A DNA stretch of 36,551 nt from the NCBI RefSeq assembly GCF_003334765.1, contig NZ_QOWT01000037.1. The stretch is one strand, 5' to 3'. This stretch comes from Escherichia coli. Its GTDB lineage: Bacteria; Pseudomonadota; Gammaproteobacteria; Enterobacterales; Enterobacteriaceae. Under the pieces are notes generated by a model. That model saw only the letters and a program-made list of their open reading frames with translations, was not told where the DNA came from and did no database searches. Positions 1 to 28,393 of the stretch are shown piece by piece. The translations under genes were made by a program, and so were the position numbers. Position 1 is the stretch's first letter. The number at the start of each line of letters is the position of its first letter.

Positions 1-928
1 TAAGCGTAACCGACAGGTTCTCCTTCATACCATATTAAATTTTTCCAGGTATTGCCGCTGCCTTATTTCGTCCCATAAAGGAAAACTCATCTGGGTTTCT
101 GACAAATACGCGAAACTCACAGCCCCTCAATATCAACCACACGTTGTAAGCCGGTAATACCTGAAAATCAGCCTATTACCGCCCACGCCTCCGGCACCAT
201 TCCCTTTTGATTTCGAATTCTTTGTTGTCGCTATACCGCTTAATGTTCCCGGTCCTCCGGTGCAGATAACACCGGACTTATCGTAGCGCTGGCTAAAAGT
301 TCAGGTGACCAGAAGGAAGCAGGAACACGATCGTAAAGTTTGCGGTCAGTTCCGTCAGTCGGTGGGCAACCGCAGAGTTACGGGCTTCCAGGTCCACAGG
401 AGTGAGTCTATAACGCGTGTGAAAAATCATTTTTTCTGGCGTTGACAGAACACATTACAGGCTGCCACTTACCCGGTGTCCCGCAATACAGCCTTAGTGT
501 TCCGTTATCGGGGATCCGGACGCACCGCAACAACCGGGGAAGTATTTCTGGTTTAGAGCTGTGTCAAGAGGGATTTCTCAGCCCCTCACTCACCGGCTCA
601 GTCTCAGAGCAGGAGCATTAATACGCTCAGTTCATGTCTTATACAGGAATGGGCACAGGGGGAGCTGGCGTGTCACTGCTGATTTTACGCATCAGCGTTC
701 ATGTATTTGCACTCTGATACATGAACGATTCACAGCGCTCTGTTACCGGAGAGATTTACTCTCTTAGCTTACTCTGGCAAATCCTTTACGTTACTCTCTG
801 ATGACTTCTTATATTTATAATACCAATCAGACAGCCTTATCCCATCGGTGATACCGAAGCCGGTCTGCGCGCCGGCTGACCCGTCATCGTTAAACTATCA
901 TTCACCGATTTTCTGTGAGGATTTTATC

Positions 929-1297
929 GTGTCAGACACACTTTCCGGGACAACGCATCCCGATGACAATGACGACCATCCCTGGTGGGGACTACCCTGC
1001 ACAGTGACGCCCTGTTTCGGCGCCCGTCTGGTGCAGGAGGGTAACCGCCTGCATTACCTTGCCGACCGCGCCGGTATCAGAGGCCTGTTCAGCGATGCAG
1101 ATGCGTACCACCTGGACCAGGCCTTTCCGCTGCTGATGAAACAACTGGAACTCATGCTCACCAGCGGTGAACTGAATCCCCGCCATCAGCATACCGTCAC
1201 GCTGTATGCAAAAGGTCTGACCTGCAAAGCTGACACTCTCGGTAGCGGTGGTTACGTTTATCTGGCTGTTTATCCGACGCCCGAAACGAAAAAGTAA
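929..1297 (+). CDS. CbeA/YeeU/YfjZ-family antitoxin of a type IV toxin-antitoxin pair
   Basis: ORF 848..1297 translation contains [37 protein letters not shown]..., typical of the YeeU/CbeA family (about 122 aa). In-frame GTG at 929 gives VSDTLSGTT... and a 122-aa product; the ATG at 848 would add a 27-aa extension. Paralog cannot be assigned. Confidence 0.8.
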
Positions 1298-1386
1298 ACC
1301 ACCGGAATAACCTTCTGCTCCGGCCTGGTGCTTTCACCACGCCACTTTTCCATTTTTCATCTCTGCATATCAGGAAAACCTTCAGT

Positions 1387-1761
1387 ATGAAAACATTACC
1401 CGATACACACGTACGGGAGGCATCGAGCTGCCCGTCTCCCGTCACCATCTGGCAGACTCTGCTCTCCCGACTACTGGGCCAGCATTACGGCCTTACACTG
1501 AATGACACACCGTTCGCCGATGAACGTGTGATTGAGCAGCATATTGAAGCTGGCATTTCACTGTGTGATGCGGTGAATTTTCTCGTGGAAAAATACGCGC
1601 TGGTGCGTACCGACCAGCCGGGATTCAGCACTTGTCCCCGCTCTCAGTTAATAAACAGTATTGATATCCTCCGGGCTCGCAGGGCGACCGGCCTGATGAC
1701 CCGCGACAATTACAGAACGGTAAATAACATTACCCTGGGTAAGCATCCGGAGAAACGATGA
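1387..1761 (+). CDS. CbtA/YeeV/YpjF/YkfI-family toxin (cytoskeleton-targeting, inhibits FtsZ/MreB)
   Basis: 124-aa [11 protein letters not shown]...[52 protein letters not shown]... matches the CbtA toxin family as recalled; sits directly downstream of the antitoxin gene. Confidence 0.85.
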
Positions 1762-2246
1762 AACTTTCCCTGATGCTGGAAGCCGACAGAATTAATGTGC
1801 AGGCACTGAACATGGGGCGAATTGTCGTTGACGTCGATGGTGTTAATCTCACTGAACTGATTAACAAGGTCGCTGAAAACGGTTATTCACTCCGCGTGGT
1901 GGAGGAATCCGACCAACAGTCAACCTGCACACTACCACCGTTTGCAACCCTTGCCGGCATACGCTGCAGTACCGCACATATCACGGAAAAGGATAACGCC
2001 TGGCTGTACTCGCTGTCGCATCAGACCAGTGACGTTGGTGAATCAGAATGGATTCATTTCACAGGTAGCGGATATCTGTTACGTACCGATGCGTGGTCAT
2101 ATCCGGTTCTGCGGCTTAAACGCCTGGGGCTGTCAAAAACGTTCCGTCGTCTGGTTATCACACTTACCCGACGTTATGGCGTCAGTCTCATTCATCTGGA
2201 TGCCAGCGCTGAATGCCTGCCGGGTTTACCCACTTTCAACTGGTAA
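1758..2246 (+). CDS. YeeW-like cryptic-prophage protein
   Basis: 162-aa ORF whose start overlaps the toxin stop (ATGA at 1758-1761); position and sequence are consistent with the yeeW-type gene that follows cbtA in CP4-like elements. Confidence 0.6.
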
Positions 2247-2257
2247 CCAGGAACAAC

Positions 2258-2455
2258 ATGAAATCATTAACCACGGAAACCGCACTGGATATTCTGATTG
2301 CGTGGCTGCAGGACAATATCGACTGCGAATCGGGAATTATCTTTGACAACAATGAGGATAAAACGGATTCAGCAGCACTGTTGCCCTGTATCGAACAGGC
2401 CAGAGAGGATATCCGTACCCTGCGCCAACTGCAGCTTCAGCACCAGAACCGGTGA
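2258..2455 (+). CDS. small hypothetical prophage-associated protein (65 aa)
   Basis: ATG at 2258 preceded by aggaac; product MKSLTTETALDILIAWLQDNIDCESG...; the longer ORF-track start at 2213 overlaps the upstream gene. Family not assigned. Confidence 0.4.
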   Translation: MKSLTTETALDILIAWLQDNIDCESGIIFDNNEDKTDSAALLPCIEQAREDIRTLRQLQLQHQNR

Positions 2456-2932
2456 GTCTTACTCACCAGACTTCATTCCACTGACGCCAGCCTGAACAGG
2501 GCTGGCATTTTCATTTATCTGCAAAAAGGAATATCGATTATGTCTGATATCACAGCCTACCGTCCGGAAGTGGTCAACGAGAATACGGACGTTATCTGCT
2601 CAACCAGCATCCGCCGCATTCTGGCTGTACGAAAGAGTTCACTGCTGCAAATCGACACAATTATCCGGCATCAAGTGAGCGATATCAGTTAACAGATATA
2701 GATGGAGAAGATGCTTTTATCCGGATTGGTTCTATCGCGATGGTGCGAGTACTACTTGATGCAATGAAGCCTGTCGAGGAAGATGACGAGTAACAGAGCT
2801 CGGTATCTCAATCAGGAGCTGATTGTCCTGGTTCGATGCCGAAAACCAGTGATTTTTCGTGTTGGTATCTGTGTTGGTATAAGATGATATTGTTTATTAT
2901 TAACAATTTTAAATCATGAGGTTAAGTCACAT

Positions 2933-2970
2933 GTTTGAGTCCGGCCTTCGCACCTTCGCACCTTCGCACC
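2933..2970. repeat. tRNA-Leu (leuX) 3'-end-like segment followed by 3 tandem copies of cttcgcac; probable island att remnant
   Basis: tttGAGTCCGGCCTTCGCACC resembles the T-arm/acceptor end of tRNA-Leu(CAA) as I recall it (GGTTCGAGTCCGGCCTTCGGCACCA); the 8-mer cttcgcac repeats at 2946-2953, 2954-2961 and 2962-2969. Confidence 0.5.
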
Positions 2971-3172
2971 ATCGGAACATCAATAGACATCAACGGACGT
3001 TTTTTTATGACTGAAATCCGCGCCACACAAGGCTTTTCGCTATTTTTCGCTCAACCTAAGTCAACCTACATCAACTTACTGATGTGGATACAGCTACAGC
3101 TGCGGCTATACCCCGATTCGATAATGTTTGTACCCACACAAAACCCTTGAAAGGCTACAAGGCTGAAATTGT

Positions 3173-3657
3173 CTAAACCATAGAGATGATTTTTATGATC
3201 CAGTCTTTCTCTTGTTGAGATAGTTCCAGTTTGCTCACTCGTGTTAAGAAGGTATTGATCACCTGAACATCCGAATTGGTGAGCCTATTTAATAGAGCGG
3301 GTGGTATACCTTTACTAACAATCGCTTTGCGGTGACTTTCGTAGTTTTTATTACTCATTGTTGATCCTAAAAAATCATTGTATGGCGGCATTGATCGTTT
3401 CCAGCAACCTTTACTTACTCACTTCGAACTGCATCCTCGTAGACAGTTCCACTACAATAATCGAAAAGGCGCGGATGTCCATTCAGGTATCCCGCTAATA
3501 CGTATAGCAATAACAATGGCTTATGCGGCGCGCGCTGTTCACCCTTGTGCCAGATTTTTATATTGGCAATTGCCTGCTGTAGCGATTTACTGGAAGCTAT
3601 TGATATCCCTGGCAGTGAAATAATTGCGATCATGCTCGCAAATTTTCTGCTGTTCAA
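3173..3657 (-). pseudogene. frameshifted gene of unknown function
   Basis: Two same-strand ORFs (3415..3657 and 3173..3391). The downstream frame is open from 3418, immediately after the upstream stop at 3415-3417, so a single frameshift in the ttacttactc tract would fuse them into a protein of about 160 aa. Confidence 0.35.
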
Positions 3658-3736
3658 GCCTGCAAGTGAAGATATATTACCTTGATCTCATTTGTTTTTT
3701 TGCTGCCTGTTCTGAGAACGTATAAGGACATTCTCC

Positions 3737-4387
3737 ATGAATAAACTCCCTGATCATCTTCCGCGGCGGTATATCATCGAAGCTATCCATTTATGGGATG
3801 CGGGAGAAACTCATCAGTTCCAGCCTGCGCGGTTGTATGAGATTGAATATCATGGCCGACGTTACCCCTCGAAGGCGATTGCTGGCATCGCAGCGACATT
3901 GATGACGGGGACGCAATTTACCCCTGCGGATTTCACCGGCGGAATAAAATCTAAATGTGTCAAGCTACTCATAGAGCAGGGATTTCATATTCATCTGGAT
4001 AAAGCCGCTGCGGCTCCCATAGCCGACGTTCTGTTCCCGGATGAGTTGCCGTCGCAGGAGACATACCTTGAAGGTGCGGCGATAAAGGTGACAGTAAACC
4101 GCTATGAACGCGATAAAAAGGCCCGAGATAAAGCGGTCGAACATCATGGATGCCAGTGCAACGTATGCGGTGTTGATCTGGTGAAGATCTATGGTGATAT
4201 CGCTGAAGGCTTTATCCATGTGCATCACCTGGTGCCGCTGTCAGCCATTAAAGAGGATTACCAGCTGGATCCAGTTAATGATTTGCTGCCTGTGTACCCT
4301 AATTGCCATGCGATGTTGCACCGACGCAAACCACCGTTTACGCCGGGGCAGTTAAAAGCGCTGATGGATGCGAATAAATCAAATTAA
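3737..4387 (+). CDS. HNH endonuclease, McrA-like C-terminal nuclease domain with an unassigned ~100-aa N-terminal domain
   Basis: 216-aa ORF; the C-terminus has HHGCQCNVCG...IHVHHLVPLS...YPNCHAMLH, a classic HNH (beta-beta-alpha-Me) motif resembling the McrA nuclease domain. aggaca lies upstream of the ATG. Confidence 0.7.
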   Translation: MNKLPDHLPRRYIIEAIHLWDAGETHQFQPARLYEIEYHGRRYPSKAIAGIAATLMTGTQFTPADFTGGIKSKCVKLLIEQGFHIHLDKAAAAPIADVLFPDELPSQETYLEGAAIKVTVNRYERDKKARDKAVEHHGCQCNVCGVDLVKIYGDIAEGFIHVHHLVPLSAIKEDYQLDPVNDLLPVYPNCHAMLHRRKPPFTPGQLKALMDANKSN

Positions 4388-4394
4388 TGAACGC

Positions 4395-5375
4395 TCACCT
4401 TTCGCGCCAAAACTGCAAAATTGCTTCTACAAACTTGTCAGAAATAATCCCCCGACGGGCTGCCGTGCTGAAATGACTGCTTCGCAGTGCCGTCGTCCAG
4501 TTCTCCGGTGACCGGTACGCTGAACCGTAATATCCCGTGCTTAAATCGTCCGGGTCTTCATCAGGCGCGTTCGTCAGTCCTCTTTCACCTTGTTGCTGGA
4601 AGTCGACGAAAATAATATTGGCTAAAACATTATTTTGATAATTGCCATAAATAACTTCATACGCATGAGGGAAATTTTCTTTCCAGTACCAGGTGGTATC
4701 GCCGCAAAACCACGGTGCGTCAGTAATATTATTAAGCTGAGAATGGTATTGTTTTAGATCCCTACGAAAGGCTTCAACCATATGATTAAAGTGTTGAGGG
4801 TGTGACGCGTAGTCACTGGTCATTAAGTCAAATTCGCCTTGCATCCAGCATACGCCGAGGAATTTGTTATGCGGATTTTTTGCCAGTGCGGCTCGCGTTC
4901 TGCTGACTAAATCCTGGTATAGCGGAGTATCCGTTCCCCAACGACAAGCATCATGGCTGGCTCCGTGCCGTTCTGAATATGTCCCTTCGCTGCCCGCGGT
5001 AAAAGCCGATCCGCCACGGCAACACGGAACGATGAGAACCCCTGCATTATCAGGAATAAAGGGCAGTAATTTCCGTGCTATATGCAGTGCCTGGCCAACG
5101 GTGCCGTACTGTGTTTGATGATTCGTTGCCAGAGGATGGTGATAACCCTGCATATCCTGAACATCGTGTGGGCAGTGAGTCAGTGGAATAATGTCGTTAA
5201 AGTGACATGACGGGCCTCCGGGATGCGTATGCGCAAATCTCGCTAATTGTTTAATTCTGGGATGAGGCGCATCTTCCCTGTCCGGTAATGGCAGTCCTTC
5301 GCCATACGCCATGGCATTAGACTGACCAGCAACGGTAAGAATATAGTAATAATCAGGCGATATTATTGCGTTCAT
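4395..5375 (-). CDS. nanS: 9-O-acetyl-N-acetylneuraminate esterase
   Basis: ORF 4395..5402 matches NanS/YjhS; start placed at the internal ATG (MNAIISPDYYYILTVAGQSNA...) for a 326-aa product. Confidence 0.9.
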   Translation of the reverse strand: MNAIISPDYYYILTVAGQSNAMAYGEGLPLPDREDAPHPRIKQLARFAHTHPGGPSCHFNDIIPLTHCPHDVQDMQGYHHPLATNHQTQYGTVGQALHIARKLLPFIPDNAGVLIVPCCRGGSAFTAGSEGTYSERHGASHDACRWGTDTPLYQDLVSRTRAALAKNPHNKFLGVCWMQGEFDLMTSDYASHPQHFNHMVEAFRRDLKQYHSQLNNITDAPWFCGDTTWYWKENFPHAYEVIYGNYQNNVLANIIFVDFQQQGERGLTNAPDEDPDDLSTGYYGSAYRSPENWTTALRSSHFSTAARRGIISDKFVEAILQFWRER

Positions 5376-7282: not shown

Positions 7283-7707
7283 AAATTTCACTCATTTGTA
7301 GGATACAGAAAGCAATACAAAGCCCGCATAAACAATTAGCATTTATGTTGTGTAATATTTTTTTGCCAGACTTATAGTGTCTTTGGCAACCGGTAGCTGT
7401 ATTTTATATTTTTTGTATAATATCTCCTGTGAAAAATCTCTTTCCACATTATTTAAATAAACAGAGGGCCAGATTAAATACCTGAGTATAAAATCTCTGC
7501 TGATGTTTAATTGATTTGAATTTTCGTAAGCTATATCGCTTACTCAATCCATTTTACCCAGAGTCATAAAATAGAGTGTCTGTTGATCTCATTTTCATAT
7601 TCCTTTCAGACTGAAGTGCGTTTTCATCACCCGATGAGAAAGAACTGAAGTGATGTTTGCCATAGATTACGAGATGCCCAGTCTCATTGACTATCGCGGT
7701 GCACCTT

Positions 7708-10458: not shown

Positions 10459-10772
10459 TTGGGGCCAAAACTGTCCATATCATAAATAAGTTACGTATTT
10501 TTCTCAAGCATAAAAATATTATAAAACGACAAAAAGCATCTAACTGTTTGATATGTAAATCATTTCTCTTGTAAATTAATTTCACATCACCTCCGCTAAA
10601 TGTAAAGCTAACGTTTCTGTGTCTCGAAGCAACTTCCTCATTCTTCTCTCCAAAAACCACCTCATGCAATATAAAAATCTATAAATAAAGATAACAATAG
10701 AATATAAAGCCAACAAATAAACTGAAAAAGTTTGTGCGCGATGCTTTCCTCTATGAGTCAAAATGGCCCCAA
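10459..10772. promoter_or_regulatory. fimS: fimS invertible phase-variation element (314 bp) flanked by 9-bp inverted repeats; phase-OFF as sequenced
   Basis: TTGGGGCCA at 10459-10467 and its reverse complement TGGCCCCAA at 10764-10772 lie exactly 314 bp apart, between fimE and fimA. Confidence 0.85.
10479..10507 (-). promoter_or_regulatory. fimA sigma-70 promoter inside fimS, oriented toward fimE
   Basis: On the minus strand: -35 TTGAGA (10507-10502), 17-bp spacer, -10 TATGAT (10484-10479), next to the fimE-proximal inverted repeat. No comparable promoter is seen on the plus strand near the fimA-proximal repeat. Confidence 0.6.
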
Positions 10773-24033: not shown

Positions 24034-24705
24034 AATAGTTACCTTTTATGAGTATTTCACTGATGTTTAGAAAAATAGATAAATTTTTCTGTAGTAAAAT
24101 GAGAAGTAAACAAATGACATGCATGTTTCTGTTGTAGTGATATCAACTCTACACGGTGATATTAAAGGGTAGGAAACACTCTAAAGTATCAAAAAACGCT
24201 CATTTGAAATTATTTTCATGCAATTTAAAAGCATATCTTATTACTAATTGGAATTTGATGTTGCTATATTGATGTCTATATTAATAATGCCTGTGAATGG
24301 TATTTTTGATGTATTTGATATGTTATCAATTTATATTATTTACAAACTAATTGTTTCAAATAATACATGGCTGATTATGCGGAAATAAATAATTTCACAC
24401 CGGAATTAAGTAGCGGTGGTGACAAGTATTTTCATCTACGTAACTATTCGGAATATTCAGAATATACTAGCGGTTTTTTTTTGAGTTTGATGATTTTTAT
24501 CAAATCATGACTTTTTTCCTGAAAAGTCAGTAGATATTCATAGGCAAGTAAGGTTTTATACTTTGCTGACAGGATTCAGGCCTGTCTCAGACTGACATGG
24601 ATGTAATGAACAAAAGGGAATGGCTATGGAAAATGAGCATCAATACAGTGGTGCCCGGTGTTCAGGGCAAGCCGCATATGTTGCTAAACGTCAGGAGTGC
24701 GCAAA

Positions 24706-27713: not shown

Positions 27714-28393
27714 GCTTGCGCTCCTTGCGTTGGGTTGCGACGTTCTTCGAAGTTAAGCCAGACGCGCAAAATGTTGGCTCCGACAAATTTAAACACCAGG
27801 ATGACTGCTAAAGGTACGATTACGGACGTGCCCAGAAAGGCAAACACCGCGACGCCGGAAGAGAAGTAGTTGGTGATAATGGCGCTACCGCTGGTTTGAT
27901 ATGCGGCGAAAATCACTTTATCGCGTTCGGTAATTTCACCTTCCTGCGCCAGCTCTTTGGTCATACCTGCGGCGGCATCGGTGTTTTGCAGGTTAGCGAT
28001 CAGCGCCAGCGAGCAGATCCCTGGAATGCCCAACAACGGTTTTAGCACTGGCGTCATTAACTGCTGCGCGGCGCGTAATCCGCCAAGACCATCGGTAATT
28101 GAAATAATCCCCAGAGAGAGAATGACTGACGGTGCCAGCTCCAGCGCAAAGAGAAAGCCATCTTTAGCCCCCGCGCCACCCGCGCCGCGAAACGAGGTGG
28201 TGGCTCCGTTCGCACCAGGCAGTTGCCCAAACGATCCGTTCAGAACGGAAAAATCAAAAACGCGCCACCAACTGTCTGTCCCGGAAAAAACACCGGAAAA
28301 AAAGATTATGGTGAGAAAAAAAGCCAGATACCCTTTAATGCCCACTTTTTCTGTCGCCAGCTCCCCGGCTACAGCATCCCCTTGTTGTGTCAT
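27710..28393 (-). CDS. yjiH: inner-membrane protein YjiH (nucleoside-recognition/SpmA-like)
   Basis: ORF 27710..28405; ATG at 28393 (MTQQGDAVAGELATEKVG...) chosen for about 227 aa. Confidence 0.85.
   Translation of the reverse strand: MTQQGDAVAGELATEKVGIKGYLAFFLTIIFFSGVFSGTDSWWRVFDFSVLNGSFGQLPGANGATTSFRGAGGAGAKDGFLFALELAPSVILSLGIISITDGLGGLRAAQQLMTPVLKPLLGIPGICSLALIANLQNTDAAAGMTKELAQEGEITERDKVIFAAYQTSGSAIITNYFSSGVAVFAFLGTSVIVPLAVILVFKFVGANILRVWLNFEERRNPTQGAQA

Follow-up and report, generated by a model that had tools for sequence, protein, structure and literature searches.

The DNA analysed here, which we call the window, is a 36,551-nucleotide stretch of Escherichia coli (contig NZ_QOWT01000037.1) that holds the right-hand end of the leuX island of this species, which lies upstream of nanS/nanM/nanC/fimB. 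Over 701 bp it shows 100% identity to numerous strains, including O26, O103 and O145 ones. In one annotated strain the left neighbours are the leuX-island right-end genes YeeU/CbtA and DUF4942 and a helix-turn-helix remnant; to the right come a phosphorothioate-DNA restriction gene that is truncated, then an HNH endonuclease, nanS/nanM/nanC and fimB. A first-pass annotation, made from the letters alone, had picked out the 81-bp stretch at 3030-3110 as a cluster of short degenerate direct repeats with no credible open reading frame. Reading the sequence directly, we found all three of its motif sets in place: a ttttcgct pair, a series of TCAAC units and CAGCTA/CAGCTG. Together with what we add to them, the features are:

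2860-2879, plus strand: putative distal arm pair, two copies of TGTTGGTA starting at 2860 and 2872 and ending about 64 bp before GGCCTTCG
2937-2971, plus strand: degenerate leuX tRNA 3' end (att core), GAGTCCGGCCTTCGCACC, recognized against K-12 leuX and the P4 attP core
2985-3006, plus strand: decayed leuX terminator hairpin with T7 run, from folding
3034-3041 and 3044-3051, plus strand: two copies of TTTTCGCT, 10 bp apart, in a loose T-tract segment with family consensus CTTTCCTCGCTTTTTCAC
3051-3080, plus strand: TCAAC units repeating at exactly 10 bp, with three copies in the window against four in the majority of intact loci
3083-3090, plus strand: putative arm-type repeat 1, TGTGGATA, class consensus TGCGGGTA or TGTGGGTA
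3091-3100, plus strand: 6-bp tandem duplication CAGCTA-CAGCT in the arm-repeat spacer, giving CAGCTA/CAGCTG at 3091-3102
3101-3108, plus strand: putative arm-type repeat 2, TGCGGCTA, class consensus TGCGGGTA
3115-3126, plus strand: GATTCGATAATG block with a -10-like GATAAT at 3120-3125, column conservation about 0.9 or higher
3131-3138, minus strand: putative inverted arm-type repeat, TACCCACA, the reverse complement of TGTGGGTA
3158-3159, no strand: junction of integrase-gene loss, from blastn against the int-bearing loci L003 and L008; L007 and L092 have the same junction

We checked whether the repeats exceed what the base composition would give, using 2000 dinucleotide-preserving shuffles of the stretch as the null. 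There are 15 non-overlapping 7-mer pairs (at most one mismatch) against 3.6±2.7 in the shuffles, and the fraction of shuffles reaching 15 was 0.002. Exact 6-mer pairs number 8 against 0.74 (fraction 0.0005). Across the 36.5 kb the stretch is in the top 3.3% of 81-bp segments for near-repeat pairs. The enrichment above chance is real, yet only moderate, and the comparative evidence is much stronger. Segments of the same length at about 28241-28360, 24241-24340, 7341-7420 and 10641-10740 contain more near-repeat 7-mer pairs than this one, and TRF with a score of at least 40 reported no tandem array at any of the four.

The sole ORF that crosses the stretch runs from 2935 to 3150, with a TTG start and 71 aa. 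In every int-bearing homologue the same region is intergenic, from the tRNA to the start of the integrase gene. Rfam at the gathering threshold gave zero matches in the entire window, and a permissive Rfam search of 2000-4500 gave one chance-level match (E 6.6) at 3920-4000, outside the stretch.

When 2976-3172 was used as query in a sensitive search, 2175 of 5426 complete E. coli genomes gave a match, often at only 75-85% identity, and some genomes had several copies. In each diverged match examined that came with an integrase gene or a remnant of one, the match lay directly upstream of that gene. The leuX-intB locus of K-12 carries the homologous stretch as well. By blastn over 2961-3158, L003 and L008 are about 80% identical to the window, and L009 and L010 are 71-79% identical. 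Homology to L003 and L008 ends at 3158; the counterpart of this position in L008 is 2689 and its int starts at 2695, which puts the end of homology 6 bp before the expected integrase ATG. No integrase ORF follows 3158 in the window. The sequence after 3158 is unrelated to the int-bearing loci and is common to 971 genomes. Because homology stops at 3158 with unrelated sequence beyond it, we conclude that the integrase gene has been lost. The L007 lineage, which is about 10% diverged, and strain 30EVA2 share this int-less junction.

The integrase of the intact relative L008 (417 aa) is 58% identical to phage P4 Int over its full length and has the Pfam domains Arm-DNA-bind_3, Phage_int_M and Phage_integrase. 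A search of a phage collection returned one Salmonella draft-genome record as its sole match. The DNA of P4 has diverged too far for such a search, and we compared this phage by eye and through its annotation.

Just past the junction is a small ORF at 3173-3391 on the minus strand, 72 aa from its first ATG. A 61-aa version of it is annotated as the hypothetical protein WP_000066585.1 in some RefSeq genomes, and NCBIfam gave no match for the 72-aa form. The 298 bp around it occur in 971 genomes, including a few plasmids, on one of which they lie between IS1 copies. A terminator-like hairpin for the minus strand, at 3162-3145, straddles the junction. Further right, 3415-3657 (minus strand) is the N-terminal remnant of a phosphorothioated-DNA-binding restriction endonuclease that is full length in O157:H7 (L002), and 3737-4387 (plus strand) encodes an intact 216-aa HNH endonuclease with a weak match to the NCBIfam family of that remnant. 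The remnant and the HNH endonuclease are probably the cargo of a gutted older element.

To describe the layout that such stretches have when the integrase gene is present, we fetched 80 loci (L011-L090) from more than 30 genera of Enterobacterales with the L008 integrase as query. The upstream stretch is included in 78 of the 80, and nearly all of these adjoin a tRNA-Leu 3' end. In intact elements the module spans about 190 bp from the leuX 3' end to the integrase start codon and has a fixed order. The core comes first, followed by a terminator hairpin that ends in a T7 run, a conserved segment of the form TGCCTGAAATCC ... CAAGGCTTT in which T-tracts are loose, and the TCAA units. Then come two direct 8-mers exactly 12 bp apart, a nearly invariant GGTTCGATAATG block, an inverted 8-mer and the integrase ATG. 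In 65 of 78 loci, 137 bp separate the core from the first 8-mer; the inverted 8-mer lies 21-23 bp past the second direct copy in about 80 of 87, and the integrase ATG is 14-27 bp beyond it. At the matching place P4 has TTCGATTAG as the equivalent of the GATTCGATAATG block. With its GATAAT, this block would form the core of the integrase promoter; a sigma-70 scan of the intact L008 arm gave no complete promoter.

The gene downstream of leuX-type integrases is hypervariable, as judged from 1.2 kb in each of the 80 loci, and includes methyltransferase- and restriction-like proteins. No protein family is common to more than 6 of the 80 within that distance. The integrase module thus seems to carry interchangeable cargo, possibly of the defence type.

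An unsupervised search recovered the direct pair at exactly 12 bp, together with the inverted copy, in about 80 of 87 loci, and the triples fall into three classes. Class 1, to which the integrase WP_164476792.1 belongs, is TGCGGGTA/TGCGGGTA/TACCCACA, class 2 is TGAGTATA/(C/T)GAGTATA/TATACTCA, and class 3 is TGTTGGTA/TG(A/T)TGGTA/TACCAACA. The three copies vary together between classes and the flanking blocks stay constant. Each class also goes with residues of its own among the 75 N-terminal amino acids of the integrase, which belong to its arm-binding domain. Because of this covariation with the integrase N-terminus, and because of the P4 annotation, we read the 8-mers as the probable arm-type sites of the integrase. 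In the window all three are present at homologous positions, with the direct copies 18 bp apart instead of 12 and differing at two positions. The first-pass annotation had raised arm-type sites as one possibility. It was right in that the stretch corresponds to the integrase-proximal att arm of a leuX-specific P4-family element, and it overlooked the actual arm repeats, which are not among the motifs that it listed. In the literature that we searched, we found no description of this grammar of three covarying arm classes and a class-independent TCAA array.

The motifs that had been listed differ in how widely they are conserved. The TCAAC array is found throughout the family. TTTTCGCT is present twice in 0 of 78 int-bearing loci, and we take the pair to be a lineage-specific sharpening of the loosely conserved T-tract segment. 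The six columns of the CAGCTA duplication are a gap in 80 of 80 aligned family members; among aligned int-less relatives the duplication is present in 30EVA2 and absent from L007. We read cagcta/cagctg as a lineage-specific 6-bp slippage duplication and not as an arm repeat.

The window copy of the module has decayed in several respects. Its direct 8-mers are TGTGGATA and TGCGGCTA in place of TG(C/T)GGGTA, and it is the CAGCTA duplication that widens their otherwise invariant 12-bp spacing to 18 bp. The arm is one 10-bp TCAA unit short, and that of L007 is two short. The terminator folds at -1.6 kcal/mol (z +0.2) against -10.8/-11.9 (z -3/-4) at live leuX loci, and a terminator scan called one in L008 and not in the window. 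Between the two int-less lineages the arm has diverged by about 10%, compared with about 3% in the flanks. The orphan arm is nevertheless found in at least 572 complete genomes, a persistence that could reflect clonal inheritance or residual function. We infer that the arm in the window is an inert relic.

The att core to the left of the arm is displaced. It has CCTTCGCA three times in tandem (2945-2974; TRF period 8, 3.8 copies, score 53) and is missing one G of the tRNA. ARAGORN found no tRNA in the entire window, and the core is without a tRNA body. Strain 30EVA2 has the identical CCTTCGCA triplication despite a different left island, and strain 90-3040 has another 8-bp expansion. Because the triplication in 30EVA2 stands beside a different island, the 8-bp expansion belongs to the old displaced tRNA end.

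About 64 bp to the left of the core is the TGTTGGTA pair, an exact match to the pattern TGTTGGTAYNNNTGTTGGTA, for which 0.12 matches are expected by chance. Of 12 displaced cores, 9 have a pair spaced by 12 bp at a distance of 60-65 bp, as opposed to 0 of 76 loci with a real tRNA body. The pairs at displaced cores belong to the classes GGGGCA (as in P4), TGGTA, GGGTA and AGTATA. We interpret such distal pairs as the integrase-distal arms of the islands on the left. One orphan arm is common to three strains whose left distal pairs differ: TGTTGGTA in the window, TGAGTATA in 30EVA2 and TGTGGGTA/TGAGGGTA in 90-3040. Differing left pairs beside one orphan arm are, on our reading of these sequences, the expected outcome of successive insertions at leuX.

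We searched the window for a second core copy (at most 3 mismatches) and for a second GGGTA-class pair and found neither, so the gutted older element has no detectable right end in the window. At the left end of strain E2865, the annotation shows no integrase in the 48 kb upstream. We had predicted that a distal pair and the integrase at leuX would match in class, and in 30EVA2 they do not. The leuX integrase of this strain (L094 40138-41674) has a proximal arm of the TGTTGGTA class, and the right end (L092 2700-2725) is of the TGAGTATA class. The 11-kb region contains IS5 and IS1 copies between the two ends. It may be a mosaic of two gutted elements, which is an added assumption, or the pairing rule may be incomplete.

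We consider it highly probable that 2976-3158 is the orphaned, decaying integrase-proximal attL arm of an earlier leuX element that had a P4-family tyrosine integrase. The homology to tRNA-to-integrase stretches, the shared layout, the covariation of the 8-mers, the absence of the integrase gene and the decay are the observations behind this reading. The arm is a relic and not a working att-int module because the adjacent integrase gene is absent. As for which protein would bind which motif, we infer this by analogy and from the sequence. In an intact module, the N-terminal domain of the integrase would dock on the two direct 8-mers and the inverted copy, and its catalytic domain would then act on the core about 137 bp away. 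As the 8-mers flank the GATAAT, the integrase would repress its own promoter, as has been reported for KplE1 and for P4. The four TCAA units would bind or phase an accessory DNA-bending protein, for which a directionality factor of the AlpA/Vis type is our first guess. In the history that we propose, the integrase gene was lost and a later island inserted at leuX, and the newcomer would have displaced the former tRNA end downstream, along with its terminator and the proximal arm, all of which then decayed. Later insertion at a tRNA is known to push the earlier junction downstream, where decay follows. The left part of the orphan arm (3020-3033, CCGCGCCACACAAGG) resembles the O157-type TGAGTATA-class arm and the right part belongs to the TGCGGGTA class; these mixed affinities suggest recombination between arms of different classes.

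The orphan arm in itself matters little. It accounts for an unannotated repeat-rich stretch as the debris of serial insertions at leuX, which is ordinary island turnover, and it marks the boundary between the resident island and the older gutted element. The att-arm grammar (core, 137 bp, 12-bp-spaced pair, GATAAT, inverted copy) may help to delimit islands, and the arm classes, with a distal pair 60-65 bp inside the right end, could assign orphan ends to integrase classes.

The units of the TCAA array in the window are TCAACCTAAG at 3051, TCAACCTACA at 3061 and TCAACTTAC(T) at 3071, and TRF describes the array with period 10, 2.9 copies and a score of 37. In the family the TCAA offsets from arm repeat 1 are -42, -32, -22 and -12 in all three arm classes, and copy number changes in whole helical turns. 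At least two phased TCAA are present in 74 of 74 classed loci and four in 39, on a background of 0.9% per position. The array is identical whichever of the three specificity classes a locus belongs to. It is therefore unlikely to be an arm site of the integrase and more likely to serve an accessory factor or bending.

By analogy with known arrays, we give roughly even chances to a directionality factor as the protein that would read it. Head-to-tail repeats one turn apart are the typical pattern of such factors (PMC7498355). An AlpA-family gene (its product, WP_000235215.1, is a 68-aa helix-turn-helix protein placed in the family by Pfam) is present inside the leuX composite island, far from the arm, in a strain identical to the window over 701 bp; NCBIfam gave weak matches only for the 68-aa protein and no match for an 86-aa helix-turn-helix protein. 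It is somewhat less probable, in our view, that the units are instead sites for the integrase or for IHF/Fis, or intrinsically bent DNA. In the 1.2 kb that follow int in the 80 loci we found no directionality-factor gene conserved beside the integrase, the array is alike in all arm classes, and phased T-tracts lie just upstream of it, all of which would fit this alternative. An IHF site is also reported in the P4 integrase promoter region (PMC7286903). Against it stand the directionality-factor pattern just described and the intact L008 arm (2497-2694), in which the IHF consensus WATCAANNNNTTR had zero matches at one mismatch or fewer.

A bolder proposal is that the array, in two to four units, is an undescribed, class-independent accessory site common to leuX-specific P4-family modules across Enterobacterales. 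We think this unlikely. Its reader would then be, by analogy, a host protein or a distant AlpA-type protein that is not encoded beside the integrase. If the proposal is true, orphan copies could still bind the factor and so affect the stability of a neighbouring island.

Returning to the arm as a whole, we are very doubtful that it is still a working cis-element that binds the Int or directionality factor of the resident island, or of some other leuX-type element in the cell, and so affects excision of the neighbouring island, or that drives transcription from the leftover integrase promoter into the sequence from 3159 on. Little damage is seen in the class-independent parts, which are the TCAA array and the GATTCGATAATG block, the relic has been kept in the many genomes counted above, and the AlpA-family gene sits in the composite island of a strain that is identical to the window over 701 bp, which all speak for some function. 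However, the 8-mers of the arm are of the GGGTA class and the distal pair of the resident island is TGGTA, both direct 8-mers are mutated and stand 18 bp apart where 12 bp is otherwise invariant, and the greater divergence of the arm than of its flanks suggests relaxed constraint. Also, the B' flank of attR is normally dispensable for excision.

We give very little credence to two further explanations. The first-pass annotation had suggested relics of repeated att duplication, and the 8-bp unit in triplicate in the adjacent core copy could be taken as a sign of this. However, none of the motifs in 3030-3110 resembles the core, the window has no further core copy at 3 mismatches or fewer, and many genera have the TCAA array at a leuX-int junction that is single and undisturbed. 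The other is a chance cluster in low-complexity intergenic DNA. Some 3% of the 81-bp segments in the 36.5 kb score as high, and neither TTTTCGCT x2 nor CAGCTA/CAGCTG is conserved; on the other side are the shuffles and the fixed positions of the TCAA units and the arm triple across more than 30 genera. The fixed positions refute chance for the TCAA array and the arm 8-mers, and chance still holds for the TTTTCGCT pair. Weakest of all is the idea of iterons, likewise raised in the first-pass annotation, or of another replication-origin feature, which has short direct repeats at helical spacing in its favour and which we dismiss, as there is no replication initiator gene nearby, the units are 10 bp with a conserved core of 4-5 bp against about 17-22 bp for an iteron, and in all of the roughly 90 homologous loci the stretch has a tRNA 3' end on one side and an integrase gene on the other.

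Phage P4 also integrates into leuX, and its attP/attL arm is the nearest known system to the orphan attL arm that we describe. P4 and the window family have the leuX 3' end as their common target, the P4 core being GAGTCCGGCCTTCGGCACCA. The P4 record NC_001609 (after Pierson & Kahn 1987) labels a like layout 'attP arm sequence repeat', with two direct 12-mers (TGGGGGCAT...), an inverted one that covers the int start codon, and another direct pair across the core. In both, a direct pair 12 bp apart lies about 110-135 bp from the core and is followed by TTCGAT(A/T)A, and beyond the core, at about 55-65 bp, there is a second direct pair. The P4 repeat is TGGGGGCA, and that of the window is TGYGGGTA. 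Unlike the window family, P4 has no TCAA array between the core and the arm repeats, and unlike P4 the window has damaged repeats and no integrase gene. Regulation in P4 is summarised in PMC7286903, which gives Pint as repressed by Int and Vis and as having an IHF site.

Among worked examples of arms that also serve as an integrase promoter, the attL of KplE1 (CPS-53) comes closest. It overlaps the intS promoter, which is under negative control by the integrase and TorI (PMC2951348). As in the window family, the att arm lies between a tRNA 3' end and the integrase gene, and sites for Int and TorI overlap the promoter. The integrase is of another lineage and the tRNA is argW, and the TorI sites (GTTCG-type) form two blocks as opposed to the four 10-bp units of the window family. 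Binding in KplE1 is experimental (PMC2951348), whereas for the window family we propose it from the sequence.

For the TCAA array, the nearest likeness is to the sites of directionality factors, which bind direct repeats one helix turn apart; in the lambda Xis array X1-X1.5-X2 and that of phage 186 Apl (PMC7498355), the repeats are head to tail at about one helical turn, as in the TCAA array. Both kinds of array have a short, weakly specific core per repeat and lie between the core and the arm sites. Unlike the Xis and Apl arrays, the TCAA array has no factor gene conserved beside the integrase in the 80 loci. As for the arrangement of the locus as a whole, the window is an instance of tandem island accretion at tRNA genes and differs from it in nothing essential.
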